IMG/VR virus record: IMGVR_UViG_3300027734_003164 | Span: 64,001 to 128,000 of that record | DNA: 64,000 bases | Reading direction: 5' to 3' (one strand) | Origin: a virus | Lineage: Duplodnaviria; Caudoviricetes | Part shown: in pieces, positions 1 through 64,000 of the stretch | Layout: each line of letters starts with the position of its first letter | Position numbering within the stretch: the stretch's first letter is position 1 | Notes under the pieces: generated by a model | The model's input: the letters and a program-made list of their open reading frames with translations, nothing else | Database searches by the model: none | Told to the model about the DNA's origin: nothing | Translations under genes and position numbers: made by a program

Positions 1-27
1 CTTTCATTGTAAATAAAACAATAACTT

Positions 28-369
28 TCATATATTATCTATTGTAAAAAATTTATTTAAACCAACCAAAAGAATATCTATTCTTGATAAATCATCAGTC
101 AGAATGTTTATTTTGTATGTTGATTCATTTTCAACTTTTTGGAAATAAATTAGTACTTGGTTTTTACTCCATCTAATAACTCCCTCTAAATAATAATGTT
201 TTTGGTCAAATAAGGAATTGGACCATACCACAGTACCTTTTTCCATTAAAGTTATTAATCCTTGAGAAGTTATATTTCTAGTTTTTACGGAGTTGGGTCT
301 TATACCGCTCTCAAATAAACTATTGAAAGTATCGTATACATAAGAAGGTACAAACTCTATTTTATCCAT
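28..369 (-). CDS. hypothetical protein (113 aa)
   Basis: Clean ORF; TATTTAT motif at 380-386 just upstream; no recognised motif. Confidence 0.75.
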   Translation of the reverse strand: MDKIEFVPSYVYDTFNSLFESGIRPNSVKTRNITSQGLITLMEKGTVVWSNSLFDQKHYYLEGVIRWSKNQVLIYFQKVENESTYKINILTDDLSRIDILLVGLNKFFTIDNI

Positions 370-391
370 AGTAAATAAAATAAATATATTA

Positions 392-2131
392 TTATGGAAG
401 TAAATCTTCTACAAAGTCCAAATACTGATAATCTTGATGGTATAAAATATCATTTTGCCAATTCTGTAGTTCAGGTGTTGGGTAATTCCAATGTGGAGTC
501 ATCGCAATTACTCTAGTCCCTTCGTGTTCCAAACTTTTGAATGTCGACTCTTGCTCAACAGTTTTACCATTACGATACTTTTTAACCATTTTTGGTAATT
601 TTAAAGTTCCGAGTTTGTAAAGTAAGTTAATATTTGCAAGTTGAATTTTAGCGACTTGTGAAAACTCTAACGATGGTGTTTCATTAAATCTAGCTCTTTC
701 TTGAACATTCAATATTTCATCTATTTTGTATCTATATTCCACAGTTATTCTATCGTCACCATCTGTTGAGTCTTTACGAATTGAGAATATTAAACAATCT
801 GGTCTTTCTGAATACCCTCGAACACAATTTCGTTGGTGTTGTGATTCTTTTTCATAGTCCGCAGTTTTTCTTAAAAGAACAGGATAATATGTTTCACCTT
901 CGTGTTCGATTGGTGTTTCTAAACTATCTACATCACCATAGAATCTTTCAACTTCACCTTTTCTGTACGATTGTAAAAGGCGACTGAACTCTTCATGTTC
1001 TAAATTAAAACTACTAATGTTTGTGAATTTGAATTTAACATCTTCTCCAAGATTCATTAAATTTTTTTTCATCTCTAAATGGTCAATTAAAGTTCTCCAT
1101 TTATAATGGTCAAAATATGGCATCAAATCTAAAATTCTATCTTTTTCTTTTGGAGTTAAAGGAACTAATGTTCTACTCAAGAAATATTGATTAAATTGTT
1201 CTTTATCTGAATAAAAACATTCAAAAGACCCACCCATTTGATTCATTTCCATTGGCATTGTCTCATCACCATAGTATGATTGAAATACTTTGTTTTCAAT
1301 TTTGTTAAACCTATCAATTCCCAAAAGATTATATGTTAGATACAATCTATCAAAATCAATCCATTCCATTTCATTAAAAATCTGTTTAACTTTTGACCCT
1401 TTTAAATTTAGTTTTTTCATTATTGAATCAACCAAATTCATATTTGATGATTTTAAATCTTTCTTTGGAATAAAAAAATAAGTGAATTTTTTCCAACTGT
1501 TTGGAATTTTAATTCCATTGACCAAATAATATGTTAAACTATAAAATGACTCCGGTGAATCCCACTTAAAATCCTGTGGATTTTCAATTCCTAATTTATC
1601 CCATATTTTTTCTAAAAAGAAAATAAAATGATTTTCAGGTTTTACGCTTTCATCAACATGAACACTTCTTAAAAAACTTCGAACCGCAACATAAGTTGGA
1701 TTAACTTTCATGCGAGCTCCCATTTTTTGTTTTTTCTTTGTGATAAATGTTCCTGAGTAGAACAATTTAGTTTTGAAATTAAATGAAAAATATTCTGTTG
1801 TTTTTCTTTCAACAAAAAACTTACCTCCGACTCTTCTTTGCTTTGTATATAATTGATACTTTAAGGAAATTTTATTTTCACTTTCTTCGATAAAAAATCT
1901 ATATCTTATTCTAAATACCGACGCGCAAGGGTTCCCGTAATGTTTAACAAAATCATCCTCAGAAAATAGTTGGGTGTCGGTATAAAACTTTTCTTTGTTT
2001 TTTGTAAAATGAACTGACTCATAACTGTTATTATGTTTTGAGTCAATATCACAGAAGTTTTTATAAAGTTCAACTCTGTAATTCTTTTTTTCAATAAACT
2101 TATGAAATGTTTTTCCTTCTACTTCTAACAT
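392..2131 (-). CDS. PcfJ-like domain protein
   Basis: C-terminal LLRKTADYEKESQHQRNCVRGY...IFSIR...RITVEY...QERARFNETP matches the PcfJ pattern (L..E...M/Q.HCV..Y...IFSIR...TIE...Q...N..P). Confidence 0.7.
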   Translation of the reverse strand: MLEVEGKTFHKFIEKKNYRVELYKNFCDIDSKHNNSYESVHFTKNKEKFYTDTQLFSEDDFVKHYGNPCASVFRIRYRFFIEESENKISLKYQLYTKQRRVGGKFFVERKTTEYFSFNFKTKLFYSGTFITKKKQKMGARMKVNPTYVAVRSFLRSVHVDESVKPENHFIFFLEKIWDKLGIENPQDFKWDSPESFYSLTYYLVNGIKIPNSWKKFTYFFIPKKDLKSSNMNLVDSIMKKLNLKGSKVKQIFNEMEWIDFDRLYLTYNLLGIDRFNKIENKVFQSYYGDETMPMEMNQMGGSFECFYSDKEQFNQYFLSRTLVPLTPKEKDRILDLMPYFDHYKWRTLIDHLEMKKNLMNLGEDVKFKFTNISSFNLEHEEFSRLLQSYRKGEVERFYGDVDSLETPIEHEGETYYPVLLRKTADYEKESQHQRNCVRGYSERPDCLIFSIRKDSTDGDDRITVEYRYKIDEILNVQERARFNETPSLEFSQVAKIQLANINLLYKLGTLKLPKMVKKYRNGKTVEQESTFKSLEHEGTRVIAMTPHWNYPTPELQNWQNDILYHQDYQYLDFVEDLLP

Positions 2132-2135
2132 AGTA

Positions 2136-2143
2136 CAAAGATA
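2136..2143 (-). promoter_or_regulatory. Bacteroidota-type -7 promoter element TATCTTTG
   Basis: Exact TAnnTTTG 4 nt upstream of the ATG at 2131; no clear -33 element. Confidence 0.5.
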
Positions 2144-2166
2144 AATAAATTTTGGAAATTAAAAAA

Positions 2167-2454
2167 CTAATTCAATGAAATTTTTCCCATATGGTGGTCC
2201 ATAAAATTGGAAACCACATTATTTAAGGTGTTTTTTTTAACCTTATTTTGAATTTCTAAAATCACCTGAATCATCTGATTTCTTGTTGGTGCTATTTCTT
2301 TTTCTTCTTTTTGGTTTTTTTCGGCAATTTCTCTAATTTTTTGATAAAACTTTGAGCCGTCATTGTCACCAATTAATAGCTTGAGTTGGTCAGGGTTTTG
2401 TGTAAAAAACTTGACAAGGGTTGTCATGTAAATTTCTATATCGACATTATTCAT
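2167..2454 (-). CDS. hypothetical protein (95 aa)
   Basis: ORF fills the gap in the minus-strand gene run. Confidence 0.75.
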   Translation of the reverse strand: MNNVDIEIYMTTLVKFFTQNPDQLKLLIGDNDGSKFYQKIREIAEKNQKEEKEIAPTRNQMIQVILEIQNKVKKNTLNNVVSNFMDHHMGKISLN

Positions 2455-2493
2455 ATGACAAATTTAATAAAAATAATTTATTCAGTAAAATTA

Positions 2494-3858
2494 TTAAAGA
2501 AAAATATGTAAGTCAGATTCTTCAGGTAAATCTTTTAAGTCTTCAGGTAATGCGTTTGAATTACTATTTTTTAAATTAATAATAGACAACTTAGGAAGGT
2601 CTTTGATACAGTCTGGTAATCTCTGTAAATTAGGATTGTCAGGTAGTGATAAAAACTGTAACTTATTTAAATTACATACCGATGGTGGTATTGTGGCAAC
2701 ACAACCAACAAAGTGAATTGCTGTTAAATCTGTAAAATTACCAATTGTATCAGGTATATTTAAATCCAATTTTGAACTTTTAGCAATAAACTCAAGTCTT
2801 GTTATGTTTTTAGGTAATGTTGTGAAAAATTCATCAAACCCATAAAGTGCAATAAATTTAGATGCTGAATCACTTGGATATTGTACAGAAACTTTTGTTC
2901 CTCCTGCAGTAGATAAACCTTTCATAAACTCAAATTTAAAGTATTCTTTCAAACCTTCTTCATTAGTATTTAAAAAGTCAACTAAATCAATTTGTCTATC
3001 TGCTGGGTCCATAAATTGATTAGATGGGAAGTGGAATTGGTACCTATACGCCGGAAGTCCAGAAACTTCACCATATTCTTTATCGGCGGTATACTTCATT
3101 CCTGAATTTGGTATAACCACATATAAAGGTCCATCCTTGATGTATCTATCAAACCAAGTAAGACCTGGTGATGATGTACACCATCTTGTTTCACCTTTAC
3201 CAGGTTCTTGATATGAACCTCCGTAGAAACATGCGGCATCTTTACCTAATTTACCGGTGTCTGAAATTCTTGCAACTGTCCAATTTTGACCTCTATAAAC
3301 AATATCAGCTCCAGGGTGAGCGTAAGTTTTAGAAGCTTCTTTCTTTTCAGTCGCACTTGCTTTAGTTTTTTCTAAACTAAAATCTTTAACATAATCATAT
3401 AATGTCTCAGGTGTTAATTTATTAATATCTCTTGCTTCTTGAGGTAGTCTATTTTTAAATCTTTCAAACTTTTGTAAGTCTCCAGTTACTTTATACAAGT
3501 CTTCTAAGAATAAATCTTGGTATTGTTTAAGTGCTGATTTATATTGTCCTGATTGTGGGTCAGAAACCATTAGTGGGTGGTCTGATGGTAATTTAGGTGT
3601 CACAAAGTTTTTCAACAACCACTGAGCGTACTTACCAATTTTTACCTTTTCCATATCTTCAGGTTTCACTGAATCAATATCCATACCTTCAGGAACTCTT
3701 GTTGTTGGGTCGGCAGCAATTAATGCAAATAAAGTTTCAAAAGGCATAATACCTTTTTGCCCCCTTTCTTTTGGTTTAACAAATTTGTCAAATAAAACTT
3801 GAAATCTTGAACTTTCAACTATTATGTCTCGTAATATATTAGTAAATCTAATCGCCAT
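2494..3858 (-). CDS. leucine-rich-repeat protein with N-terminal phage 'WCT' domain
   Basis: C-terminal LRRs (IPDTIGNFTDLTAIHF, IPPSVCNLNKLQFLSL, LPDCIKDLPKLSIINL, LPEDLKDL); central AACFYGG...TRWCTS...WFDRY segment. Confidence 0.75.
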   Translation of the reverse strand: MAIRFTNILRDIIVESSRFQVLFDKFVKPKERGQKGIMPFETLFALIAADPTTRVPEGMDIDSVKPEDMEKVKIGKYAQWLLKNFVTPKLPSDHPLMVSDPQSGQYKSALKQYQDLFLEDLYKVTGDLQKFERFKNRLPQEARDINKLTPETLYDYVKDFSLEKTKASATEKKEASKTYAHPGADIVYRGQNWTVARISDTGKLGKDAACFYGGSYQEPGKGETRWCTSSPGLTWFDRYIKDGPLYVVIPNSGMKYTADKEYGEVSGLPAYRYQFHFPSNQFMDPADRQIDLVDFLNTNEEGLKEYFKFEFMKGLSTAGGTKVSVQYPSDSASKFIALYGFDEFFTTLPKNITRLEFIAKSSKLDLNIPDTIGNFTDLTAIHFVGCVATIPPSVCNLNKLQFLSLPDNPNLQRLPDCIKDLPKLSIINLKNSNSNALPEDLKDLPEESDLHIFL

Positions 3859-3906
3859 CTTTTTAATTTTATATATAAATATTGCAAATTTTAAAAAAAA
3901 TAAAAC

Positions 3907-4746
3907 TTAGTAGTTCATAATGAGTAATTCTTCACCCATATTTTGTTTTTCTCCTTTCTTGGCGGCGGCAGCTTTTGCAAACTCTTTTTTAACCCAATTG
4001 TATTGGTCTTCAGGAAACCACTGATGTAATAAGTCAAAATCGTAATATGATAATGAAAATTTACCCTGAACATTATGTAAAACATTTGCCAATCTTTCGT
4101 GGTCTTGTCTATCAAAATCATGATTAGAGTAGTAATTCTCAGTTTTCCAATAAGGTGGGTCCAAATAGATGTAAGTGGATGGTGAGTCGTATTTATTAAT
4201 AACGTCAGCAAAATCCATATTTTCTACATCTGTAATCTTTAAAAAATGGTCTACCCAATCAGGTTTTGATAACTTATCTCTAAAGGTAAGATATTTTGAT
4301 TTATACTTCCCTTTAAGGTCAATAAAGTTAGATGTTTCAGGTTTTGACCCACTAAATACTTGTGTTAGAATATAAACGTATTTGGCTGCAACCTCGTAAT
4401 CGCCAGGTTCTACGCTGAAACCTTCATTAAAAACTTCAGCCTGAAAGCTTACAAATTGATTTCTATAAATCTCAGGAGTGATGTCCACACCTTGTTTTTG
4501 ACAATCAATAGAGTTAATTGCTCGTAACAATTCAGTTGGGTTTTGAACACACTTGAATAGATTATAGTTCAGTGGATTAAAATCATTATAAACCACTTTT
4601 TTAAGATTCGGGAACTGTTTTAGGTCCATATTATAGAAACACCAAAACATTCCTCCAAAAGTCTCTAAATAGACCTCCATATTTTTATCGTAGAAAGGGA
4701 CTATCCACTTTCCAATTTTACTCTTACCGCCAATGTATGAAACCAA
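3907..4746 (-). CDS. DNA adenine methyltransferase, Dam/D12 class
   Basis: N-terminal SYIGGKSK, motif I ETFGG, YNDFNP, catalytic YLDPPY, FSLSY near the C-terminus. Confidence 0.9.
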   Translation of the reverse strand: MVSYIGGKSKIGKWIVPFYDKNMEVYLETFGGMFWCFYNMDLKQFPNLKKVVYNDFNPLNYNLFKCVQNPTELLRAINSIDCQKQGVDITPEIYRNQFVSFQAEVFNEGFSVEPGDYEVAAKYVYILTQVFSGSKPETSNFIDLKGKYKSKYLTFRDKLSKPDWVDHFLKITDVENMDFADVINKYDSPSTYIYLDPPYWKTENYYSNHDFDRQDHERLANVLHNVQGKFSLSYYDFDLLHQWFPEDQYNWVKKEFAKAAAAKKGEKQNMGEELLIMNY

Positions 4747-4751
4747 AACTA

Positions 4752-5435
4752 TTATTTTTTTCTATATTTATTTTTACTACTAATTATATTAATAACCTCA
4801 TCAAAGATAATCTTTTTTCTATTTAAAAACAAGTCCGTTTCAGAATAAAACCCATTGTAAATCTTTTCAATATCTGACATACCTGCCCACCCAACAAATT
4901 TATATTCTTTATTTTTTGGTCCGTAAAGTTTATTAACATTAACTCCAAATAATTTACCCATCCTTTCATTTAAAGTATTTATGAAATTAACTGACCCACC
5001 AACAATTCTCAAGTCCCCTCGTTTAGAATTATCTTTTTTGTCTTCATTTATTCTAATACACCCATCACCATCAAAATATCCTCGTAAAAAATGTCTTTCA
5101 AGATTTTCATCAATTTTAGGGTAACTTATTGTATAAGTTTTGTTTGGGTGTAATCCAATCTTTTTTAAGTCATTTATCATTTTCTTACTTGAAAACCCGA
5201 TTTCAGAAATTTCTCTATGATTACTTCTCCATATTTCAACTTCACTATCTAATAAGGATATAAACTTTTTTAATATATCTTCATCTTTATTATGAATTTT
5301 AATATTTAATTTATATCTATATTCTTTTGGATTGTCAATTAAACATCCATCAGCATAGATAAAACCAAGAAAATAAGCCTTATCTGGAGTATCAATCGTC
5401 TTAAAATAATCTTCATTAAATTTTTTTCTTATCAT
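4752..5435 (-). CDS. free-standing LAGLIDADG homing endonuclease
   Basis: Two LAGLIDADG-like helices: FLGFIYADGC and FLRGYFDGDGCI. Confidence 0.9.
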   Translation of the reverse strand: MIRKKFNEDYFKTIDTPDKAYFLGFIYADGCLIDNPKEYRYKLNIKIHNKDEDILKKFISLLDSEVEIWRSNHREISEIGFSSKKMINDLKKIGLHPNKTYTISYPKIDENLERHFLRGYFDGDGCIRINEDKKDNSKRGDLRIVGGSVNFINTLNERMGKLFGVNVNKLYGPKNKEYKFVGWAGMSDIEKIYNGFYSETDLFLNRKKIIFDEVINIISSKNKYRKK

Positions 5436-5580
5436 AATATTCCTTTACTAAATCTTGAATGAATTTAGATATACTAATATTTTCATTTTTCATTTTATCA
5501 AACAAAAATCTATCTATACTAATACCGTATTTAACTTTTTTGTTTTCTTCATTTTTTTTTGGTCTTCCAAGTTTACTCAT
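5416..5580 (-). CDS. small ribbon-helix-helix-like DNA-binding protein (54 aa, not in ORF track)
   Basis: Hand translation MSKLGRPKKNEENKKVKYGISIDRFLFDKMKNENISISKFIQDLVKEYYDKKKI; GRP hook, alternating beta strand, then two helices; overlaps LAGLIDADG start. Confidence 0.65.
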   Translation of the reverse strand: MSKLGRPKKNEENKKVKYGISIDRFLFDKMKNENISISKFIQDLVKEYYDKKKI

Positions 5581-5674
5581 ATATTATAAATATCAATATT
5601 ATAATAAAAGTGCGTTAATAAATAAAAATAATTTTGATATTTATTTTCAAATGATTAATACATAAATTATAGGT

Positions 5675-5830
5675 ATGAAAAAAGAAAAAGCAACAGAAGT
5701 GGAGTGTAGTATTTGTAAAAAGGGTATGTCCAACTCTCAAATTTGGATTACTATTTTGGCGGTTTACATGTTAATCGCGGCGGTCTACGGAACAATAGAA
5801 ATCGTTAAAAATATAATGTCTTTATTTTAA
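5675..5830 (+). CDS. small CxxC + transmembrane protein (51 aa, not in ORF track)
   Basis: Hand translation MKKEKATEVECSICKKGMSNSQIWITILAVYMLIAAVYGTIEIVKNIMSLF; plus-strand TATTTAT at 5638-5644 upstream. Confidence 0.6.
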   Translation: MKKEKATEVECSICKKGMSNSQIWITILAVYMLIAAVYGTIEIVKNIMSLF

Positions 5831-6784
5831 TATATTATTAATTTGTTCTCTTTGTTCGTTAGTTAAAGTCAGATTATTCTGTATGCTTATTTTTATGTAA
5901 AAATTACCAACAGCACCATCAACTTTATATCCTTTTTTGAAAAGTCTTAATGGTTTTTCAGTATCAAATCCTTCAGGTAGATTTATTTTTATATTACCAT
6001 CAGGGTGAGGTATTTCAACTTGGTCGTTTATTAATAAGTCTTTGAAATTTAATTTTAGATAATAAATCAAATCATTTCCTGATTTTTCAAAATTGTTGTG
6101 TTTCATACACAAAACTTTTAAAATTAAATCGCCCCTACCATATTTAGGTATTTCATCCCCCATACCTCTCATTCTCATAAAGTCACCATTATCTACATTG
6201 TTTGGTATTTGTACATTAAACTTGCTGTGGTTAGAAATAACCCCATTACCATAACAAACCCCACACGCGTCAATTAAATGTTCACCAGTCCCTTTACATT
6301 CGAAACAATTTGATTGCATTTGTGTTTTGAAAAATCCCGTACCAACTGTTTGTATAATAAACCCTCTACCTGCACATCTTGTGCATGTTTTTTTAGTTCC
6401 ACCAGTTCCCGTGCAACTTTCACAAGATTTATTTGTGTCAACTTCGATTGTTTTTTCCACACCTTTATAGGATTCTTCAGGGGTAACTACTATTTCAATA
6501 ATTTTGTCAGCCGGTTTAGGTTGTCTTTGTGAATGTCCCATCATTTCCTCAAAAATTGACCCGAACCCACCATTTCCAAATGGGTTTCTACGTTTCATGT
6601 CGTAATCACTTCTTTTATTGTCGTCCTTTAAAATATCATAAGCTTCAGAGATTTCTTTAAATTTTTCTTCACCGTTTGGGTTTACATCTGGATGGTATTG
6701 CTTACTTAGTTTTTTATATGTTTTTTTTATATCATCTTGTGTTGCATTTTCACTTACACCTAATATTTCGTAATAGTTTTTCAT
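5822..6784 (-). CDS. dnaJ: DnaJ (Hsp40) chaperone
   Basis: J domain with NYYEILGV...YHPD, four CxxCxGxG zinc repeats, C-terminal peptide-binding domain (GDLIL, IEIPHPDG). Confidence 0.93.
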   Translation of the reverse strand: MKNYYEILGVSENATQDDIKKTYKKLSKQYHPDVNPNGEEKFKEISEAYDILKDDNKRSDYDMKRRNPFGNGGFGSIFEEMMGHSQRQPKPADKIIEIVVTPEESYKGVEKTIEVDTNKSCESCTGTGGTKKTCTRCAGRGFIIQTVGTGFFKTQMQSNCFECKGTGEHLIDACGVCYGNGVISNHSKFNVQIPNNVDNGDFMRMRGMGDEIPKYGRGDLILKVLCMKHNNFEKSGNDLIYYLKLNFKDLLINDQVEIPHPDGNIKINLPEGFDTEKPLRLFKKGYKVDGAVGNFYIKISIQNNLTLTNEQREQINNILK

Positions 6785-6785
6785 A

Positions 6786-7427: not shown

Positions 7428-7629
7428 ATTCAACGTTTGAAATTTGTATCGTGCATTTTTTTTCATTTTGATTCAACATCAGATGTTGTAATAGATTAGA
7501 AAAGGTGCCTTCATCCAAAGACACCTTTAATTCAACTTTTTCATTTTTGATAAATGAACTTTCAAGTAAATCTGAAATTTGAGCCAGTTTTTCTAAATCA
7601 CCCCTAAAACTCTCTTGATTCTCTGCCAT
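7408..7629 (-). CDS. hypothetical protein (73 aa)
   Basis: ORF in minus-strand run. Confidence 0.65.
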   Translation of the reverse strand: MAENQESFRGDLEKLAQISDLLESSFIKNEKVELKVSLDEGTFSNLLQHLMLNQNEKKCTIQISNVEFTFLRK

Positions 7630-8544: not shown

Positions 8545-8603
8545 TTAAAAATTTTTATACATTTATTTTTTTTAATTTAAATACGTGGTTTGTAATGTAA
8601 AGA

Positions 8604-9098: not shown

Positions 9099-9138
9099 GG
9101 GGAAAATATAGTATAATTTTATTAGAAATGAATTTTAA

Positions 9139-16974: not shown

Positions 16975-17523
16975 TTAAACTCGTTTTGAATATGATACAA
17001 TTTGGTAAAAATCCTTTTTTCCTTCACAATATTCTAACACCAAAGTTAATAATGTTTTGAACATGTAAGCGTCTTTTGTTTGTTTTTCGCAGATGGTAAA
17101 TAACTCAATAAAACTCACAAGGGTGTCCATCTTATAATACCCATGATTGTCTAAAACATCGAACTCATATAAATGTTTTTTGTAAAAATTAAGTTCGTAA
17201 CTATTTCTTTCTTCTGTGTTGTTGAATGGTTCCGTTGTTTCATACAAAGATAATACTTTTTTTACAAACTTACCAACAATCACTTTATTATATTCACATT
17301 TTACTAAAAGGTCAGTAATCCAGTGCGTATGACTTGGTGTTCTTAAACGTTTGTTAGTTTCTTTGTATTTTACAATAAAGTCAAGTTCAGGATTTTCACC
17401 TCTTGAACCTTGGTATGTCGCAACCATAGTTCCGTCTACCATTGTATACGTAGAAATTGGTGAAAAGGTTACACCTTTTTTAGTATAAGTTAGGGTCATA
17501 ATTTTATTTTTTTTATAAATCAA
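16975..17523 (-). CDS. hypothetical protein coupled to the EcoRI-like gene
   Basis: 11-nt overlap with the endonuclease stop; FIVKYKETNKRLRTPSHTHWITDLLVK motif. Confidence 0.75.
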   Translation of the reverse strand: MIYKKNKIMTLTYTKKGVTFSPISTYTMVDGTMVATYQGSRGENPELDFIVKYKETNKRLRTPSHTHWITDLLVKCEYNKVIVGKFVKKVLSLYETTEPFNNTEERNSYELNFYKKHLYEFDVLDNHGYYKMDTLVSFIELFTICEKQTKDAYMFKTLLTLVLEYCEGKKDFYQIVSYSKRV

Positions 17524-18331
17524 TACTTAATATTTCAAGGGAAGTTTTTGAAACTTCTAACATAATATCCAACATTTCAATATTGTTCCACTTATCACCA
17601 TTTCCTTTTGTGTAAATAGATGCGCTTTGTAAAACACGTAATACCGTACCATTTTTAGTTATGGATTTGTTTTTACACAAATTAGTATTTATTGGCATTC
17701 CATAATTTAAAGCAGTCAACCTATCCAATCTGTTTAATGTACCAGAGTTTGATGATAGAGTTACGTCTCTACCATCAGGTCTTGTTATGGAAATTGTTTC
17801 TGTCAAAAAATTTGAACCTTCTAAAAACAAAATATATGGAAAATGTGATTCAGAAATCATTAAGTTACGAGTTTCAATTATATTTTTTGGAGCTCTTTCA
17901 ATTGCGTTTCCAGCCACCATTAAGTCTTGATTGGATAATTTACCAACTAAAACCCCCTTTTTTATATTTTCAATATCCTTTCCTTGAAACTTTGCTTCCG
18001 TAATTAAAACTATCCTCCAATCACCATTTTTATCTTTTACTTCAATTATTCCACCGTCTGGTTTAATACATGACTTAGACACAAAAAGGGTTTGACCTAA
18101 TTCGGAGTCCATTTTTTTTAAAGAGTCATTTATTTCTTTTTTAGATACGCTTTTTCTATATCTAAAAGTAAGATGGGGGTATTCCTCTTTTATTTTTTTT
18201 AATACGTGAGTTGTAGTATTATCAACACTCGATTCGTGGATTTTTGCATCATCTCCAAAAATACCATCAACACCTTGAGTCTTTTTATGTTGGTCCGTTA
18301 ATCTTTTTGATTGTTTATTTTTGATGGTCAT
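17513..18331 (-). CDS. type II restriction endonuclease, EcoRI family
   Basis: Colinear with EcoRI as recalled: QGVDGIFGD, IKPDGG (D91), TEAK (E111/K113), GNAIER (N141/E144/R145), HFPYILFLEGSNF, LNRLDRL (R200/R203), NYGMPIN. Confidence 0.93.
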   Translation of the reverse strand: MTIKNKQSKRLTDQHKKTQGVDGIFGDDAKIHESSVDNTTTHVLKKIKEEYPHLTFRYRKSVSKKEINDSLKKMDSELGQTLFVSKSCIKPDGGIIEVKDKNGDWRIVLITEAKFQGKDIENIKKGVLVGKLSNQDLMVAGNAIERAPKNIIETRNLMISESHFPYILFLEGSNFLTETISITRPDGRDVTLSSNSGTLNRLDRLTALNYGMPINTNLCKNKSITKNGTVLRVLQSASIYTKGNGDKWNNIEMLDIMLEVSKTSLEILSIDL

Positions 18332-18362
18332 ATTTTTATGATTTAAATATATCCTTAGAATA

Positions 18363-18392
18363 CAAATATATAAAAAAGTTAATTACTACAAA
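18363..18392 (-). promoter_or_regulatory. Bacteroidota-type promoter upstream of the EcoRI-like gene
   Basis: -7 TATATTTG (18363-18370) and -33 TTTG (18389-18392), 18-nt spacing. Confidence 0.55.
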
Positions 18393-21423: not shown

Positions 21424-22209
21424 TTAACCGTTTAAATTGGAGCTTCCGTGAAATTTTGCGTTGATGAACGAATTATTTTTTGGTTGCTCTAATATTTTTT
21501 TTTCTAATTCTTTGTTTTTATTTTTTAAATCCCTTATTTCTGAATTTAAATTTTGGATGGTTTGTTGTAACATCTTCAACTTACCATCATCTACAGAAAT
21601 GTCTAAATTACGTCTAAGTTCGTCTAACTCTTCATCCTTTTTAGACATTTCATTTTGGAAAATATTTTCCATTTCTTTTGTTTTAATTGAAAATTCTTGT
21701 CTAATATTGTCAATTTCTGTGGTCTTAATCGAAATTTCTCCGTTCAACTGTTGTATTTTTAACAACAGTTCATCCAACTGTTCGGAATTTCTTGACAGTT
21801 CGATTTCCAACTGTTGTATTTTTAACAACAGTTCATTTTCAGTTGTTTTGTCACTAATATATTCTATTTTTGTGACAATTTTTTCAACCTCTTTAATAAC
21901 CTCAACAGGTATTTCTTTAATAACCTCAACTATTTTTTCAACCTCTTTGATTACTTCAACAGGAACTTCCACCAGTTTTTCAACAATTATCTCTTTTATT
22001 AATTGTTTTTCTTCAACTCCAACCGTTTTTAAGTCTTTTTCACCTTCATTAAGTGTTTTTCCCAAAAACCCATATTTTTTAATATCAAATCCTTGTTTAA
22101 AACATAGATAAATAAAATTATCAACGTCTTTTATTTCTTTAGATTCGCAAAATGCAGACACTGCCTGCATCATTTCTTTACTAAATATTTTGGAGTCTTT
22201 CTGTTCCAT
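21424..22209 (-). CDS. coiled-coil protein with VEVIKEV repeats
   Basis: Repeated VEVIKEVEKI units, then a long heptad region. Confidence 0.75.
   Translation of the reverse strand: MEQKDSKIFSKEMMQAVSAFCESKEIKDVDNFIYLCFKQGFDIKKYGFLGKTLNEGEKDLKTVGVEEKQLIKEIIVEKLVEVPVEVIKEVEKIVEVIKEIPVEVIKEVEKIVTKIEYISDKTTENELLLKIQQLEIELSRNSEQLDELLLKIQQLNGEISIKTTEIDNIRQEFSIKTKEMENIFQNEMSKKDEELDELRRNLDISVDDGKLKMLQQTIQNLNSEIRDLKNKNKELEKKILEQPKNNSFINAKFHGSSNLNG
21745..21836. repeat. two identical 29-bp palindromic direct repeats, 34-bp spacer, in frame
   Basis: CAACTGTTGTATTTTTAACAACAGTTCAT at 21745 and 21808; internal inverted repeat AACTGTTGT/ACAACAGTT. Confidence 0.85.
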
Positions 22210-22840
22210 TTATTTTATTTCTTTTTTCTAAATTTTCATACCACCATAATGGTTGTAGATTGGTAAAATGACAAAGTTTATAAATTTCTTCTTCTGTTTT
22301 AGCTGATATTAATGGTATAATATGGTCTATGTGCCAACCATTTAATCCATAATTTTCCCAACACATACCATCTTTAAATTGTTTTTCTATATGTTCTTTT
22401 AATTTTTTAGGTTCACACCCAACAATTTTAAAAGTTTCGTTATCTTGTCTTATATTTTTACTTTTTAAAAAATTTTTTACCCTACTCCGAACATTACACC
22501 TTATTTTAAATTCAATGTCATTTTTTTTTCTATTTTTTGTGTAATTATTTATTTTTTCTTTGTTATTATCTCTGTATTTTTTTGCACGTTTTTTTTGTTC
22601 CTCTTTAGTTCTATCTCTATATTTTTTTTTAGTTTCTTTATGTTTTTCAACATTTCTAAAATAAGTTTCTCTATTCCAACTATTAGTTTTTTCTTTATTT
22701 ATCTTTCGGTAATTATTTACCCTATTTCTAGTGCAATTTTTGCACTCATTTCTTAAACCGTCTTTTGAATCGGACCTTGAGTGGAAGTCGTTTATAACTT
22801 TTTCAGTATGACAAATATTACAAATTTTTGTATTTTTCAT
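22181..22840 (-). CDS. HNH homing endonuclease with N-terminal Cys zinc finger
   Basis: CNIC...ECKNC; WHIDHIIPL...LCHFTNLQPLWWYENLEKRNK. Confidence 0.88.
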   Translation of the reverse strand: MKNTKICNICHTEKVINDFHSRSDSKDGLRNECKNCTRNRVNNYRKINKEKTNSWNRETYFRNVEKHKETKKKYRDRTKEEQKKRAKKYRDNNKEKINNYTKNRKKNDIEFKIRCNVRSRVKNFLKSKNIRQDNETFKIVGCEPKKLKEHIEKQFKDGMCWENYGLNGWHIDHIIPLISAKTEEEIYKLCHFTNLQPLWWYENLEKRNKINGTERLQNI

Positions 22841-55934: not shown

Positions 55935-55936
55935 AA

Positions 55937-56401: not shown

Positions 56402-56452
56402 ATTACATAAATATAATATCCAACATTTTTAGTTAAATAGATATAAATAAAA

Positions 56453-56473
56453 AATCCGAGTATAACTCGGATT
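56453..56473 (-). terminator. intrinsic terminator after nrdA
   Basis: AATCCGAG-TATAA-CTCGGATT with a T-run on the minus strand. Confidence 0.8.
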
Positions 56474-56478
56474 AATTT

Positions 56479-58881
56479 TTAAGAAGAACAACCAAAACAA
56501 TCAAAGTCTGAATTAGTTGGTTTTGGTGGAAGATTCGTGTATGAATATTCTACCTTTGGTTTTTCCTTTTTTGTAACATCTAAAGCTAAGTGTTTTGCCC
56601 CTGTTGAAATGGCTTTTGTTCTTACGTAATAACAAAGAGTCTTTAAACCTTTTTCCCATCCATAAAAATGTGAAGATGTTATTTTAGAAAGTGTTGGATT
56701 TGACATGTAAATGTTCATAGATTGTGATTGGTCGATAAACGGAGCCCTTTCGGCTGACATGTCAATCAGTTCTTTTTGTGAAATTTCCCAAATAGTTTTG
56801 TATTTCGGAATCAAATGTTCAATTCTTTTAACCTTTCTATTATAACCTTTTTCTTCAGTATCTAAGTAATTGTTGAAATTAATATTTTGAATTGAACCTT
56901 CGTTCATAATAATTTCATTTTTTAAATCCTCAGACCAAATTCCAATTTTTTCAAAGTCGTTGATTAGATATTTGTTTACAATCATAATTTCTCCCCCAAC
57001 AACTCGTCTATTAAATAAAGCCGAATGTGCGGGTTCTGTCATTTCAAATGAACCTGTGATTTTGGCGGAAGACGCCACAGGCATTTGAGCGGTGAATAAT
57101 GAATTACATACACCATAAGTCATAACATCTTTTTTCAAGGTTTTCCAATCCATAAACAAATCTTCTTCAGAAAGTCCCCACATGTCAAATTGAAAAATCC
57201 CTTGTGACATAGGTGAACCTTTAAAAAACTCATATGGAGTTCTTATCCCTTTTTTACACAAGTCATTACTTTCAAGAATAGCCGCGTAATAGATTGTTTC
57301 AAAAATATTTTTATTTAATTTTTTAGCCTCAGGTGAGGTAAATATATAATCCATTAAATAAAATACATCCGCCAATCCTTGTGTTCCAATTGCAATCGCT
57401 CTTTGTTCTAATCCACCTCTATGACCTTTTTCGGTAGAGTAGGTATTTTTATCAATAACATTGTTTAATGCTTTAACAATTTTTCTAACTTCACTTATTA
57501 ATAAATGATAATTGAACTGACCGTCTTTTATATAATTTTTTAACACTACCGACGACAAAGTACAAATTGCAGTGGTTTTTTCATCTGTGTATTGGTAAAT
57601 CTCATTACATAGGTTAGATTGTTTAATTACTCCAATATTTTGATGGTTAGTTTTTTTGTTCGCGCTATCTTTAGAACATAAATAAGGAACACCCGTTTCT
57701 ACTTGAGACTCGACAATTTTACTCCAAATGTCTTGTGCTTTAACTTTTTTACCAATACCCATGTTAACTGCCGTGTTATATACTTCTTCGTATTCATCTC
57801 CAAAACATTCTTGTAATGCTTTTAGTCCTGCCTTTTTAATATCATTAGGACAGAATAAATACCAATCGGTGTTGTTCTTAACTGCATTCATAAAGTTGTC
57901 AGGAATCCAAAGCGCGGTAAACAAATCACGAGCTCTTAACTCTTCGGCTCCTGTGTTCTTTTTAATATCTAATAAATCAAATATGTCTTTGTGCCAAGGT
58001 TCAAGATATATAGCAGCACTACCCGGTCTTCTACCTTGTTGATTAAAAAATCTTAAAGACTCATTAACGATTTTTAAATATTTCAACAATCCACCCGCAT
58101 AACCACCTGAACTTGAAATTCTACTTTCTTTACTTCTTATGTTAGACATTGAAAGACCAATTCCTGCCGCGTCCGATGAATAAGTTGAAATATCATTCAT
58201 TGTATTTAACAAACCTTCTCTTGAGTCTGAATCGTTGTAGTGTAAAACACAAGATGCTAGTTGTGGTGTTTTGGTACCAGAGTTAATCATAATTGGTGTT
58301 GCCGGTGAAATAAGTTGTGCCGATAAAGAGTTATAATATTCTAATGCCTCCTCTAAAGTATTAGTAACCCATATAGCAACTCTCATATACATGTGTTGTG
58401 GTCGTTCAACAACTTTCCCATTTGGTCTTTTTAACAAATACATTTCTTGTAATGACCTCCAAGCAAAATAATCAAAGTTATAATCGTTGTCATGTTTAAT
58501 TGCAACATCAACAACATCTTCACCATAGTATTCAATTTGTTTAATTAACTCTTCATTAACTACCCCATCCTCGTAAAGCAATCTCATAGTTTTTGAAAAA
58601 CTTTCATCAGTTTCTTTATGGTATGAGGATATTGCAACCGACGAAGCCATTCTTGAATAGTCGTGATGACTTCCCGTATATGCTGCGGCAATCTCATAAA
58701 TTAACTTATCAAGTTCTTTTGTTGTTACTTCTCCCTCAGTCGGAACTGATGTAATTACTTTAATAAAAATTTCATCTGAGTTTACGTTCAAACCTTTTGA
58801 TGAACGTTTTACTCTGTTATAAATTTTTTGCGGATTGAACGCGACGTTTTCTCCGTTTCTTTTGGTTATTTTTAATGACAT
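56479..58881 (-). CDS. nrdA: ribonucleotide reductase class Ia alpha subunit with ATP cone
   Basis: ITKRNGE ATP cone, ATPIMINSG, QLASC, QQGRRPGSAAIY, SNLCNEI, TAQMPVASS, LKTLCYYVR, terminal CFGC. Confidence 0.97.
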   Translation of the reverse strand: MSLKITKRNGENVAFNPQKIYNRVKRSSKGLNVNSDEIFIKVITSVPTEGEVTTKELDKLIYEIAAAYTGSHHDYSRMASSVAISSYHKETDESFSKTMRLLYEDGVVNEELIKQIEYYGEDVVDVAIKHDNDYNFDYFAWRSLQEMYLLKRPNGKVVERPQHMYMRVAIWVTNTLEEALEYYNSLSAQLISPATPIMINSGTKTPQLASCVLHYNDSDSREGLLNTMNDISTYSSDAAGIGLSMSNIRSKESRISSSGGYAGGLLKYLKIVNESLRFFNQQGRRPGSAAIYLEPWHKDIFDLLDIKKNTGAEELRARDLFTALWIPDNFMNAVKNNTDWYLFCPNDIKKAGLKALQECFGDEYEEVYNTAVNMGIGKKVKAQDIWSKIVESQVETGVPYLCSKDSANKKTNHQNIGVIKQSNLCNEIYQYTDEKTTAICTLSSVVLKNYIKDGQFNYHLLISEVRKIVKALNNVIDKNTYSTEKGHRGGLEQRAIAIGTQGLADVFYLMDYIFTSPEAKKLNKNIFETIYYAAILESNDLCKKGIRTPYEFFKGSPMSQGIFQFDMWGLSEEDLFMDWKTLKKDVMTYGVCNSLFTAQMPVASSAKITGSFEMTEPAHSALFNRRVVGGEIMIVNKYLINDFEKIGIWSEDLKNEIIMNEGSIQNINFNNYLDTEEKGYNRKVKRIEHLIPKYKTIWEISQKELIDMSAERAPFIDQSQSMNIYMSNPTLSKITSSHFYGWEKGLKTLCYYVRTKAISTGAKHLALDVTKKEKPKVEYSYTNLPPKPTNSDFDCFGCSS

Positions 58882-58891
58882 ATTAATAAAT

Positions 58892-59839
58892 TTAAAAATC
58901 TTCTGTGAATGTTATAGTTTCGTTTAATTTCGCTTTTTGGTATTCCATTGTTCTTGATTCAAAGAAATTTCCTTTTGTTTCAACTGCAATTTGTTCCATA
59001 AACTTGAATGGTTGTTCAACATTAAATTCTTTACTACAACCCATTTTCACTAACAAACCATCAACAACAAACTCTAAGTATTGTTTCATTAAATTTGAGT
59101 TCATACCAATTAATGATACTGGAAGTGATTCGGTGATAAATTCTTTTTCAATTTCTAATGCTGAAAGTAAAATTTCTTTAATTCTTTTTTCTGATGGTCT
59201 TTCTTCTAAGTGGTTATTTAATAAATGAATTGCAAAATCACAATGTAAGTTTTCATCTTTAAAGATAAGTGAATTAGCGTTACATAATCCTTGCATAATT
59301 CCTCTTGATTTCATCCAAAAAATAGAACAAAAAGAACCTGAAAAGAAAATACCTTCAACGGCAGCAAACGCAACTAACCTTTCGGCGAATGATGATTTTT
59401 CAATCCATTCCAACGCCCATTTAGCTTTCTTTTGAACTGCAGGTAGTCTGTCAATTGCATTGAAACACTCGTCTTTTTCTTTTGAATTTGAGATGTAAGT
59501 ATCTATTAACAATGAATACATTAATGAATGAATATTTTCCATCGCCAACTGAAATCCATAGAAAAACTTAGCCTCAGGATATTGAACTTCTCGATAAAAG
59601 TTTTCCGCTAAATTTTCATTTACAATACCATCTGAAGCTGCGAAAAATGACAGTACATTCTTGATAAAGTATTTTTCGTTTTCTGTTAAATTTTCCCAAT
59701 CTCTGATGTCATTTGTTAAATCGACTTCTTCTGCGGTCCAAAACGCAGCTTGGTGTTGTTTGTAAAATTCCCATATATCATTGTGTTCAATTGGGAAGAT
59801 GACAAACCTACCAGGATTTTCTGTTAATAATTTTTCCAT
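58892..59839 (-). CDS. nrdB: ribonucleotide reductase class Ia beta subunit
   Basis: [51 protein letters not shown]. Confidence 0.97.
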
Positions 59840-59853
59840 AATTTTTAATTAAT

Positions 59854-61233
59854 TTAAGATTGTTGTTCTTTTTGCTTTTTCTTTTCTAAAAGCTCTTTGA
59901 TTCTATTTTTATTTTTTTCTTCTTTTTGTTCTTCCAAACCTAAGAAAGTCATACTTTGTTCTGTGTCTATTTCTAACATTCCGTTGTCAAATTTACAGTT
60001 TTCAAAAACAACTCCGTCTTTACCAATTCTTGATTTGGTAATGGCAATTGTTGCCAAGTTCATTTCTTTCTGTTGTAGACTCTTAGCTACAGTAATGATT
60101 ACGTGACCAACTTGAGCCTTTTTAATTGACCCGCCCATTTGGTCTGTTGTAACCACTTCTGACGAAATCGAATTACGATTTCCTTGTGTTGCTGTCCAAC
60201 CTGCGATGTCCAACTCATGACACATTGATTCAAACCCTCTCATTACTGAACCTTCACTTTTCCATTCATCACCCATCATTTTGTCAGGAACAACACAGTC
60301 AATATAATCTAAAATAATCATATCAATTCTAATTCCTTCAGCCATCATCTTTCTAACTTGATTTTTGATTTGATTCATAGTTACGGTGTCGGATGGAAGT
60401 TTTTTTATAATCAACTTATTTTTCATAGTTTCCTTAATGTGTTTTACCTTCGCCATAACTTCATCTTTATTTTCAGACATGTCATCAGGGTGGATTCCCG
60501 TCCAAAGTGTATAATGTTTTCTTTGGATAATTTTTGGGTTGTCTTCAAAAAATATTTGAAGAACATTATATCCCAAGTTGAATGCGTGGTTTGCAATTTT
60601 AGTAGTAAATGTGGATTTACCTACCCCCGTCGGTGCTAAAATAACACCAATCTCACCCTTGGCTAAACCACCTTTCAATAGGTTATCAATACCTGCAACT
60701 CCAATTGGAATTGGGTGTCTGTAATCGTCGTTTAAAACCTCATCAAGGTTGAAGAAAACGTCGGTTGTTCCTTTATCGACCTCACCAACTTGTAACGCTC
60801 CTCTTACCATTTCTTCTAAGTGGTCATAACTTTCAAAATCACCCTTATCAATGATTGATTGAGCTTTGGTCATAACCTTCTGTAATTCTTGTTGTTTACA
60901 GAATTTTAATGACTTTTCTTGAACAAATAATGAACCGTCATCAGATACATCTTTTACTTGTTGTAATGTATCCAAAACACTCTTTTGAGCCATTGGAGAA
61001 GATATTTCTGACTTTGTAAGTTGTTCTAATGTATCAAATGTTGGAGTATGTTCATAGTTTGAATAAAACTCCTTAATCATTTGACAAATAATACGAAAAT
61101 ATTGGTTGTCAAAATAGTGTGGGTCAATAACTTCAAGAATGGAATTTGAGAAATCTTTATATAAAATAATATTGTTTAATAATTGAATTTGAAAAGTATT
61201 TCCTAAGTATCCGAAGTTTTTTTTGTCTGACAT
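59854..61233 (-). CDS. dnaB: DnaB-like replicative helicase
   Basis: Walker A APTGVGKST, FFED, IILDYID, WTATQGNR, KSRIG. Confidence 0.9.
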   Translation of the reverse strand: MSDKKNFGYLGNTFQIQLLNNIILYKDFSNSILEVIDPHYFDNQYFRIICQMIKEFYSNYEHTPTFDTLEQLTKSEISSPMAQKSVLDTLQQVKDVSDDGSLFVQEKSLKFCKQQELQKVMTKAQSIIDKGDFESYDHLEEMVRGALQVGEVDKGTTDVFFNLDEVLNDDYRHPIPIGVAGIDNLLKGGLAKGEIGVILAPTGVGKSTFTTKIANHAFNLGYNVLQIFFEDNPKIIQRKHYTLWTGIHPDDMSENKDEVMAKVKHIKETMKNKLIIKKLPSDTVTMNQIKNQVRKMMAEGIRIDMIILDYIDCVVPDKMMGDEWKSEGSVMRGFESMCHELDIAGWTATQGNRNSISSEVVTTDQMGGSIKKAQVGHVIITVAKSLQQKEMNLATIAITKSRIGKDGVVFENCKFDNGMLEIDTEQSMTFLGLEEQKEEKNKNRIKELLEKKKQKEQQS

Positions 61234-61270
61234 ATTCTGTATTTTTTTTATTTCTATATGATAAATATGA

Positions 61271-61723
61271 TTAAGCCAACGAATAATTAAGGTAATTATA
61301 AGATAAATTTTTATCTGAAAAAATGTCAGTTAAATCTTTTAATATCGTTTTTATTGTTGGTCGTATATCCAGGGTATATCTAGCCTTTGGTGGGTATACT
61401 TTAGCGTCGATGATGGTATGACAAATTGTCTCATTTCCAATTCGAATAATCAAATTAAAAACTTCCGGACCATCAGTATTTGATGTATCTAAGATAGATG
61501 AGTCTTCTTCAATTTGGAACCGATTTTCCAACATATAGAAAACTGTTTTGTTTCTTAGTTTTGTTTTTAACTCTTCTGACAATGATTTCATGTAGTCCAA
61601 TAACTCAATACTATTTTTAGCCTTTTGGTTAATGTTTCTTACATTGAAAAAACGTTGTACGACGAAGTTGTCATTTAATGTAATTAGAAATTCAACTTTA
61701 GTAATGTCCTGATTTTCTTTCAT
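61271..61723 (-). CDS. hypothetical protein (150 aa)
   Basis: Clean ORF in the replication cluster. Confidence 0.75.
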   Translation of the reverse strand: MKENQDITKVEFLITLNDNFVVQRFFNVRNINQKAKNSIELLDYMKSLSEELKTKLRNKTVFYMLENRFQIEEDSSILDTSNTDGPEVFNLIIRIGNETICHTIIDAKVYPPKARYTLDIRPTIKTILKDLTDIFSDKNLSYNYLNYSLA

Positions 61724-61727
61724 AATT

Positions 61728-62735
61728 TTAGTTTTTTGTTTTAAATTTTGTTTTTTCTTTTCTTGTTAACTTTAAAAACGGTTTTAAAAAATAAATCCAA
61801 TTATCATCTGTTTTTGGTAGGTATTTAAATATCCCGTCTTCCATCATCATTCGAATTAGGTTTTTATACCCTCTACCATCAGGGTCTAATGATTCTGAAT
61901 AGTACGAACTAACTAACTCTTTACCTTCTTGATTTATTAGTGGTTCATCTAAATCAATTAGTTTTTTATTAATTGCATAATACTCATCGCCAAATATACC
62001 TTCTTTTGTTTTACCAGACAAAAGATTTTGTAATGATTTGTTGTCTTTATTTTCTTTAAGGAGTTTTTCCCCTTTTGATAAAATATCGGATAATTCCACT
62101 TCTTTTTCAAGTATCTCAGGAAAAAACTTAATTAAAGTCTTTTCACCTAAATAAAAAATACCGTCGATATTATCGGATGAATCACCTGTAAGGATTTTAA
62201 TTATTTTGACATTATAATGGGGAACTTCAAAATCGCTCATTTTGATAGTGTCCCCCATCTTATAATATCTTTTTGTGGATGGTGAATAAATAGTTACCTT
62301 TTCAGAAATAAGTTGTGTAAGGTCTCTATCGCTTGAGAAAATTGTTTTATTCTCGTCTTCAGAAATTTGACAGTAATACGCAATTAAATCATCCGCTTCT
62401 GAATTTTCAACTTCAAGTTGTCTAACAAACATCTCTTCAAGATATTGCTTAACTCGTTGTTTTTGTTCATCATAAGAGTCTTGTTTAATCTCATTAGAAA
62501 GGTCTCTACGGTTTAATTTATACTTGGGGTATATCAACCTTCTCTGTGATGAGTTCGTGTCGCTATCCCAAAATACTACAACTTTATTATAGTTGTTCTC
62601 CTCTAAAAACTTTCTTAAAGTATTCAAAAAGTGCCAAATGGCCCCAATATGTTTTCCTTTGTGGAAATAATCTTTCACACCATGAAAACCAATTTTCATC
62701 AAATTGTTTCCATCAACCAATAAGGTTTTTGTCAC
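61728..62735 (-). CDS. 5'-3' exonuclease / RNase H (FEN family)
   Basis: LLVDGNNL, VFWD, RRLIYPKYK.NR, EADDLIA, SSDRDL, ILTGDSSDNIDG..GEKT. Confidence 0.92.
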   Translation of the reverse strand: MTKTLLVDGNNLMKIGFHGVKDYFHKGKHIGAIWHFLNTLRKFLEENNYNKVVVFWDSDTNSSQRRLIYPKYKLNRRDLSNEIKQDSYDEQKQRVKQYLEEMFVRQLEVENSEADDLIAYYCQISEDENKTIFSSDRDLTQLISEKVTIYSPSTKRYYKMGDTIKMSDFEVPHYNVKIIKILTGDSSDNIDGIFYLGEKTLIKFFPEILEKEVELSDILSKGEKLLKENKDNKSLQNLLSGKTKEGIFGDEYYAINKKLIDLDEPLINQEGKELVSSYYSESLDPDGRGYKNLIRMMMEDGIFKYLPKTDDNWIYFLKPFLKLTRKEKTKFKTKN

Positions 62736-62756
62736 TTTTTTTGTTTTTAATTGTTA

Positions 62757-63764
62757 CTACTCTACTTCTTCTTTTTCTGCTTTCAAATCAAAGTCACCAT
62801 CAACTCCGATTATTTCCTTCCAATACTCGGCATATTCTTTTTTGTATTGTTCGATTGATGCCTTTTCTTCGGAAGCTTCTTTTCCTGGTAAGAAACCGTG
62901 TGGTGTTACGATAATCTTTCCATCTTCAAAACCAAGTCCGTTGATGTGATTTTTCATAACAGACACCTTAGTTCTTGATGCAAACTTAACAGTTCTCTTA
63001 TCTTTAGTTGCTGTAATTTTTGTTGTACCAGCTCCTTTTTGATTTCCAAATAAGAATACTAATGAAGAGTTCAACCAAATAGCCTCACCACCTTTTGCTT
63101 TAATTTTAGGTTGTCCGAATGGATTGTCAGGTAATTCAACCCAAGGTTGATTAACAATGATTAAGGTATTTTCGTATTTAGAGTCAGCTTTACGTGAACC
63201 TGAAATACGTTGGTTAATACCCATACCAATCTTGTCGGCCAAAACACTTGCGTTGTGTTGTTTACCTCCTTTACCTTCGTAAGTCATTTTACAAGGAACA
63301 GAACCAACTGAGTCCCACATAATACACAATGAATAATCAATATCACCCTTTTCTTGAGCGTCTAATAAATCATTAATGTAATCTGTGATTTGTTCAATAT
63401 AATCAAAGTTATTATTGAATATATAAAAACCATCCCACTCTAATTCTCCTGTTTCTGTGTCAACAACTTCTTCACATTCAAACCCCATTAACTTAGCGTG
63501 GTCAAACGACCATTTTTGTTCAGTGATGATAAATACAGGTAAAATACCTTTCTTCTGAGCATCAACCGCAGTCTTAACTAATGCCGTTGTCTTACCCGTA
63601 TCTGAATGTCCTAAGAACATATTAATGTGTCCCATAGCAGGACCAGGTAAACCAACCGCATCCAAAAACGGAGAGCCAAGGTCAAAGAATCTTTGTGGTT
63701 TATATTTTGCAGAGGTAGAAAACTTTTTTTTCAAAGACCCAAAGTCGTTCTTTTTAATAGCCAT
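62757..63764 (-). CDS. RecA/UvsX-like recombinase
   Basis: Walker A GHSDTGKTT, ITEQ, WDSVG, IVNQ, KAKGGEA, KNHI. Confidence 0.9.
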   Translation of the reverse strand: MAIKKNDFGSLKKKFSTSAKYKPQRFFDLGSPFLDAVGLPGPAMGHINMFLGHSDTGKTTALVKTAVDAQKKGILPVFIITEQKWSFDHAKLMGFECEEVVDTETGELEWDGFYIFNNNFDYIEQITDYINDLLDAQEKGDIDYSLCIMWDSVGSVPCKMTYEGKGGKQHNASVLADKIGMGINQRISGSRKADSKYENTLIIVNQPWVELPDNPFGQPKIKAKGGEAIWLNSSLVFLFGNQKGAGTTKITATKDKRTVKFASRTKVSVMKNHINGLGFEDGKIIVTPHGFLPGKEASEEKASIEQYKKEYAEYWKEIIGVDGDFDLKAEKEEVE

Positions 63765-63985
63765 TATTGTTCGTAAATTTTAAAATTTTTTATAGTTTCC
63801 AACTTATCTTTTGCGTCTGTAAGTTGTGTGACTAAATTATCCATTTCTTCGGTGTGTTGTGGATGCTCACCAATACCAACAGGGTTTGTGAAATACACAT
63901 ATAATCTTGCTTCTGCATCTGCAATTTCAGACTCGTATTTTTTCACAAGAGCATCTTTTAATTTTTCTGCTAAAAATATGTTCAT
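63764..63985 (-). CDS. conserved phage hypothetical protein (73 aa)
   Basis: LVKKYESEI..A...VYFTNPVGIGEHP motif; stop overlaps the recA-like start. Confidence 0.7.
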   Translation of the reverse strand: MNIFLAEKLKDALVKKYESEIADAEARLYVYFTNPVGIGEHPQHTEEMDNLVTQLTDAKDKLETIKNFKIYEQ

Positions 63986-64000
63986 TTTTTTAATTTTTTA

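Follow-up and report, generated by a model that had tools for sequence, protein, structure and literature searches.

Complete loss of GATC in giant freshwater phages, and a phage protein family linked to GATC enzymes

GATC is absent from the window and from much larger relatives

The four-letter word GATC is wholly absent from a 64,000-nucleotide (nt) stretch of Caudoviricetes phage DNA (IMG/VR record IMGVR_UViG_3300027734_003164, positions 64,001 to 128,000; this whole stretch is referred to as the window), and the same absence extends over related genomes of up to 309 kb. Restriction-site avoidance, with host nucleases as the driver, is on balance the probable explanation for the window. A 182-amino-acid (aa) protein encoded within it, found among phages only in GATC-free genomes, raises a second and more tentative one. 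The absence had been described in an earlier note made by reading the sequence, and an exact search of all 64,000 bases returned a count of zero. Expected counts were 133 from 100 dinucleotide-preserving shuffles (standard deviation 13), 140 from a maximal-order Markov model and 180 from base composition, in reasonable agreement with the 150–200 sites that the note had anticipated. The Poisson probability of finding no site is ~1e-58, and chance is therefore excluded. In a Markov-corrected count of tetramers, the check suggested in the note, GATC (0 against 140) gave the lowest observed/expected ratio of all 256 words in the window, the next lowest being CTGG and CTAG, both at 0.41. The window can be described as follows.

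1..64000, no strand: GATC-free phage DNA, with a replication/early region and a structural region of a giant freshwater phage

Avoidance of GATC acts on the DNA itself

The means by which GATC is avoided are visible in codon choice. Within the window, aspartate preceding a codon that starts with C was never encoded by GAT (0/89), as against ~70% elsewhere in the window, and isoleucine following a codon that ends in G was never encoded by ATC (0/144) but by ATT or ATA. Serine following an xGA codon was never encoded by TCN (0/24, against 74% elsewhere in the window), and in the context that would form GATC its codons shift to AGY. Outside the open reading frames (ORFs) the DNA is equally clean, with no GATC in the window where 8 were expected and none in G005, a 270-kb relative, where 60 were expected. 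The same codon-context pattern recurs in G001 and G005. Given synonymous avoidance in all three frames and clean non-coding DNA, selection acts on the DNA itself, and in the window this DNA-level selection against GATC is strong. The frequency of isoleucine after G-ending codons is unchanged, at 144/1417 in the window and 445/3823 in GATC-bearing relatives, which indicates real evolution rather than a base-calling artefact at methylated sites.

The GATC-free state extends across the lineage

The nearest record, G001, is 95.5% identical to the window and covers its positions 1714–64000. The whole relatives that are free of GATC were assembled from independent samples, and related records with and without the word are given below, with all counts as observed/expected.

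Record; length and completeness; GATC; other words
G001; 96 kb; 0/206; GAATTC, GTTAAC and GATANC also erased, as in the window
G005; 270 kb, 88% complete; 0/766
G036; 309 kb, complete, with terminal repeats; 0/845; CATG 0/766
G009; 294 kb, complete; 0/745; CCGG 0/200
G010; 223 kb, 76% complete; 0/602
G003; 292 kb, 99% complete; 232/775; GACGTC 0/20
G002; 214 kb, 71% complete; 389/625; GACGTC 0/16
G004; 166 kb, 57% complete; 443/566; ACGT 7/198
G011; 281 kb, 96% complete; 538/1007

Of the 80 loci taken with the helicase gene as anchor, 53 were GATC-free, 11 had low counts and 16 were near expectation. Every outer clade of the helicase tree is GATC-free, and the 33-member clade that contains the window is a mosaic of states with at least 7–8 changes. 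In the nearly free contigs the few GATCs are scattered, and each lies one substitution away from a word that all relatives share, which marks them as new gains. Judged from this tree and these gains, absence of GATC seems to be the ancestral condition in the wider lineage and to have been relaxed several times, with new GATCs drifting back. A recent re-purge of the window was also considered, in view of the normal sharing of GATC among G002, G003 and G004 and the retention of 0/20 such sites in the window, and was withdrawn. At ~73% identity synonymous sites are probably saturated, so that shared-site tests do not decide the direction of evolution, and GATC sharing at this identity can be explained by conserved amino-acid context together with codon bias.

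Other words have been erased strain by strain

The earlier note had described the depletion as specific to GATC. The other palindromes that it listed do occur in the window, but GATC is not the only word affected. Both GAATTC (16–22 expected) and CCTAG/CTAGG (32 expected) are missing altogether, whereas GTTAAC (2 against 19–26 expected) and GGTACC (2 against ~10) are reduced to a few copies. The non-palindromic family GATANC is depleted about tenfold, with observed/expected counts of 5/38 for GATAAC, 2/25 for GATACC and 1/14 for GATATC (expected range 11–17). Words erased or depleted in the strain represented by the window and G001 are, CCTAG apart, normal in the relatives; CCTAG has an observed/expected ratio of 0.2–0.3 in every relative. 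Elsewhere in the lineage a second four-letter word has been lost, this being CATG in G036 (L281–L296), CCGG in G009 (L401–L415) and, with a few copies remaining, ACGT in G004 (L120–L128), and GACGTC is near zero in several genomes.

Such shifting, strain-specific sets of short and mostly palindromic words fit the signature expected of changing restriction enzymes. Given the variety of words erased from strain to strain, one intrinsic factor hardly provides an explanation. The erasure of CCTAG/CTAGG and GATANC may point to enzymes with non-palindromic targets (type IIS, type III or others) or to a bias in repair.

Host nucleases as the probable agent

Restriction-site avoidance is an already known kind of phage adaptation. 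Staphylococcus phage K has eliminated GATC and thereby avoids Sau3A restriction (PMC6532042). Every one of the 46 phages with a host enzyme matching GATC shows under-representation of the word (Rusinov et al. 2018, PMC6286503). As in phage K, a large virulent genome has been cleared entirely of GATC, and protective modification is not needed. The phages described here differ in genome size, which is two to three times that of phage K (reaching 309 kb, with 845 sites expected), in the extent of the GATC-free state, which is found throughout an abundant, uncultured freshwater lineage and has been relaxed repeatedly, and in the erasure of other words by strain; of the two, only phage K has a known host and enzyme. 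As in the phages of Rusinov et al. (2018, PMC6286503), short type II palindromes are under-represented, but here the depletion is absolute rather than partial, and the strain of the window is also without the non-palindromic words CCTAG and GATANC.

In the lineage every GATC has been removed, mostly via synonymous codon swaps, and under restriction-site avoidance this would leave nucleases that read GATC without a target. The nucleases responsible would most likely be those of Bacteroidota-type hosts. Candidates are enzymes like MboI, DpnII and Sau3AI, which cut unmethylated GATC, enzymes like DpnI, which cut methylated GATC, or both. Erasure of the word is the sole defence effective against both kinds. 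We infer that the selecting nuclease belongs to the host. Six-frame searches of G001–G005 gave no match to the DpnII/MboI (PF04556) or MutH/Sau3AI (PF02976) families, and six-frame searches of G001, G005, G009, G010 and G036 gave none to DpnI (PF06044).

Host enzymes were surveyed in 301 sampled genomes from the phylum of Flavobacterium covae (Bacteroidota). Full-length members of the DpnII, Sau3AI/MutH and DpnI families were each present in 3/301 genomes (~1%), and when all hits over the cut-off were included these figures became 11/301, 6/301 and 4/301, respectively. Given this rarity, host restriction is possible yet not common at the level of the phylum. The earlier note had proposed strong long-term selection by a host system of the Sau3AI/MboI or DpnI type; the strength of the selection is borne out by the codon contexts and the non-coding DNA, whereas the choice of agent fares less well, the families being rare in the 301 genomes.

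Two points weigh against host restriction as the driver. An enzyme frequency of ~1% (up to 2–4%) is low for a pressure that holds a broad and abundant lineage at zero. In addition, the association with a GATC-linked protein of the phages described below, perfect in one direction, is not what host restriction alone predicts. On the other side, G010 is GATC-free over 223 kb without carrying the gene for that protein, which supports restriction-site avoidance. Assignment of a host through the closest bacterial homologs of the EcoRI-family protein encoded in the window was rejected, as these were mostly from Bacteroidota but spread over many phyla. Also in favour of avoidance is the lack of an alternative protection by the 7-deazaguanine route, no DpdA/TGT gene having been found in the lineage, whereas two cultured Flavobacteriia phages with queuosine-pathway genes (one of which, immuto, also has DpdA) carry normal GATC numbers, at 158/195 and 287/301.

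A 182-aa phage protein is linked to GATC enzymes

A single ORF of the window has homologs that are confined to GATC-free genomes.

16975..17523, minus strand: 182-aa protein of a family tied to GATC enzymes, found in phages only in GATC-free genomes

All of the viral loci that carry this gene are GATC-free (80/80), and they span 51–98% identity, 27–37% GC and at least five types of gene neighbourhood. Together these 80 loci contain a single GATC in 1.35 Mb, plus 13 that lie beyond a chimeric junction in L249, where 3,780 were expected. At ~8.9 kb in L249 (8839–12039), GATC-free DNA that is 99.6% identical to L246 passes into 72%-identical DNA with a normal density of GATC. Either the assembly is chimeric here or a GATC-free and a GATC-bearing phage have recombined in nature, and the contig was on this basis rejected as an exception. 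The gene is present in the GATC-free records G005, G008, G009, G016 and G035–G039, and in 0/19 GATC-bearing records, among them G003 (99% complete) and G011 (96%). Two records without the gene, G013 and G014, hold 1–2 scattered GATC. G010, with 0/602 GATC, has neither the gene nor a remnant of it at the syntenic slot, and the gene is thus not required for the GATC-free state. The ORFs that fill this slot in G003 and G001 were considered as homologs and found not to be homologous. Independent phylogenetic contrasts between the gene and GATC are few in phages.

The 182-aa protein gave no hit in Pfam, PHROGs, NCBIfam, PADLOC, the ESM Atlas or PDB sequence profiles, and no homolog in cultured phages or in 401 sampled Bacteroidota genomes. 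Its AlphaFold2 model has a pLDDT (predicted local distance difference test score) of 84, and no known fold was recognised for it either with Foldseek against the PDB or in a wide search with VIA-align; the best Z score was 5.8, to generic helical bundles. Distant relatives were found by an exhaustive profile search. In P0276 a domain of the 182-aa type is fused to a bona fide Dam methylase (TIGR00571, 283 bits against a cut-off of 115), and P0248 is a homolog from Hyphobacterium sp. CCMP332 (QNL21090.1). In two Streptococcus-type contigs (L432:5512-9002 and L434:70-3553) a 333-aa member of the family is encoded 16–18 bp downstream of the ORF for a 223-aa MutH-family nuclease, the pair being divergent from DpnM-like and DpnA-like methylases. 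The arrangement is that of a GATC restriction-modification locus, the nuclease side of which may be a two-protein enzyme. Two HNH nucleases adjoin the locus. The fusion to Dam, the operon with a MutH-type nuclease and the stand-alone form found only in GATC-free phages tie the family to GATC enzymes in three independent ways. Across 20 diverse members, residues D48, K52, H65, D71, E146 and K147 are invariant or nearly so, a pattern suggestive of an active site.

The arrangement in the two Streptococcus-type contigs recalls DpnII-type cassettes (DpnM, DpnA and a nuclease) and the Sau3AI/MutH nucleases; it harbours distant relatives of the 182-aa protein, and another relative is fused to Dam. 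In contrast, the protein occurs by itself in the phages, where it lacks a MutH-like partner and an established GATC methylase and matches no known nuclease fold. A tentative proposal is that the 182-aa protein is the founding member of an undescribed family of modules that read GATC, acting as a nuclease or as a targeting or binding subunit. Such modules would accompany Dam and MutH-type enzymes in bacteria and would occur free of a methylase in giant phages, where they may be used against host or rival DNA, with protection afforded solely by the erasure of GATC from a genome of ~300 kb.

In that event the loss of GATC could be self-imposed. The protein would be the phage's own GATC-directed reader or nuclease, deployed against the DNA of the host or of competitors; each new GATC would harm the phage, which would hold the number of sites at zero, and loss of the gene would let GATC return. 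The strict confinement of the gene to GATC-free loci and records, the one or two GATCs scattered in the gene-less G013 and G014, the fusion to Dam, the position behind a MutH-family nuclease and opposite DpnM- and DpnA-like methylases, and the near-invariant charged residues that resemble an active site are all consistent with this explanation. It is nevertheless doubtful, given that G010 is GATC-free with no trace of the gene, that the predicted fold is unlike any known nuclease, that the bacterial relative accompanies a MutH-like nuclease for which the phages have no counterpart, and that the other erased words are left unexplained. The contrasts on which the association rests are also few, and the GATC-bearing genomes possibly represent only one to three losses. 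The earlier note had offered "other GATC-dependent toxicity" as a fallback, and some support for this idea comes from the phage protein family linked to GATC enzymes and restricted to GATC-free genomes.

The host-DNA nucleases EndoII and EndoIV of phage T4 spare T4's own modified DNA. If the proposal for the 182-aa protein is true, the likeness would lie in a phage attacking DNA that bears a feature its own genome lacks. However, the immunity of T4 is one of base modification, whereas here it would be one of sequence erasure, and the nuclease activity of the 182-aa protein is putative.

Methylation and sequencing artefacts as alternatives

For enterobacterial phages it has been proposed that Dam/MutH select against GATC, and the window encodes a methylase that could be considered in this context.

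3907..4746, minus strand: D12-class DNA methyltransferase, a core gene of the lineage (PF02086, 72 bits, full length; DPPY motif)

A liability of methylation would arise if this enzyme, or a host Dam, methylated GATC, with the purge then due to MutH-type nicking or SeqA-like sequestration and not to classical restriction. The conservation of a D12-class methylase as a core gene agrees with such a scheme, but other evidence renders it very improbable. Against the Dam subfamily model TIGR00571 the enzyme scores 52.4 bits, with a cut-off of 114.85, and on this score it is not classed as a bona fide GATC Dam. The sole solved structure matched by the lineage profile is 7M6B (M.CbeI, an N4-cytosine methyltransferase; E 6e-7), with no EcoDam, T4 Dam or DpnM at E<=1. 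Furthermore, the enzyme is 70–97% identical in GATC-free and GATC-bearing relatives alike, and thus equally conserved in those with hundreds of GATC sites, and proteins with a MutH domain were present in 6/301 sampled genomes of the phylum.

The remaining explanation, systematic miscalling of methylated GATC or a mutational bias, has a negligible probability: 12 of the 20 positions with GATC in relatives do read GGTC or GACC in the window, as miscalled methyl-adenine would, but the same absence is found in well over 100 independent contigs from many samples, the replacements follow the reading frame and are synonymous (isoleucine kept as ATT/ATA, serine as AGY), close relatives have normal GATC counts, and CCWGG and GANTC are at normal levels.

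Gene content of the window and a hypervariable cassette slot

The genes of the window are tightly packed and lie nearly all on the minus strand. They encode a DnaB-type helicase, a UvsX-like recombinase, a class I ribonucleotide reductase, a 5'-3' exonuclease, a primase and an SbcC-like protein, and the window also encodes a sigma-70 factor, DnaJ, baseplate and fibre proteins and glycosyltransferases. The top protein matches are to Cellulophaga and Tenacibaculum phages at ~40% identity. No close cultured relative was found, the helicase of any cultured phage being at most 28% identical. A restriction endonuclease gene lies beside that of the 182-aa protein.

17513..18331, minus strand: lone EcoRI-family restriction endonuclease (PF02963, 416 bits; PADLOC REase_II, 396 bits)

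The last 11 nt of this gene, which fills the cassette slot described below, are shared with the beginning of the 182-aa gene. No EcoRI-type methylase was present among the 30 window ORFs scanned with Pfam, the sole methylase being the D12 enzyme 13 kb away. Positions 17513–18385 of the window form a hypervariable cassette slot between sbcC and the 182-aa, DUF6576 and sigma genes, with syntenic slots at L115:14793-16359, L134:9966-11590 and L102:3379-5310, and its content differs in every relative. A beta-class N6/N4 methylase and a small unknown ORF occupy the slot in G001, G002 and G003, the slot is empty in G004 and G010, and in G005 it holds a phosphoribosyl pyrophosphate synthetase and unknown genes. 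A general rule linking a nuclease gene to an erased site, with EcoRI as the parallel, was dropped. GAATTC is mostly retained in ten other viral contigs that carry EcoRI-family genes, and G001 lacks GAATTC though the EcoRI-family gene is absent from it; no general rule can thus be drawn.

Next to the D12 methylase gene lies a gene for a LAGLIDADG homing endonuclease (window 4752–5435, minus strand). It is missing from the 95.5%-identical G001 and from every other relative, which suggests that it was inserted recently as a mobile element. A 579-aa protein (392–2131, minus strand) has a borderline PcfJ-like domain at 25 bits, exactly at the cut-off. A 219-aa protein (22181–22840, minus strand) matches endonuclease VII/HNH families, and its N-terminus matches the Lar-like restriction-alleviation family of PHROGs. 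In G003 a stretch at a different position matches this protein in part, with 46.8% identity over 94 of the 219 residues, and the other relatives have no match.

Erased words as a possible record of restriction, and the 182-aa family as a lead

Genomes of up to 309 kb that lack a four-letter word altogether are an extreme case of restriction avoidance. Given that sister strains have erased different words (GATC, CATG, CCGG, ACGT and GAATTC), this group of lake phages reads as a record of the restriction enzymes of its hosts, and such a record could aid host assignment and the prediction of host range. Restriction-site avoidance being a known adaptation, the interest lies in what remains, namely the undescribed protein family tied to GATC and the list, strain by strain, of the words erased. 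The 182-aa family, which no database names, is the more valuable lead. If it is true that this family reads or cuts GATC, it would be a new family of enzymes or DNA readers, and the phage would be exploiting a site that it has erased from its own genome.

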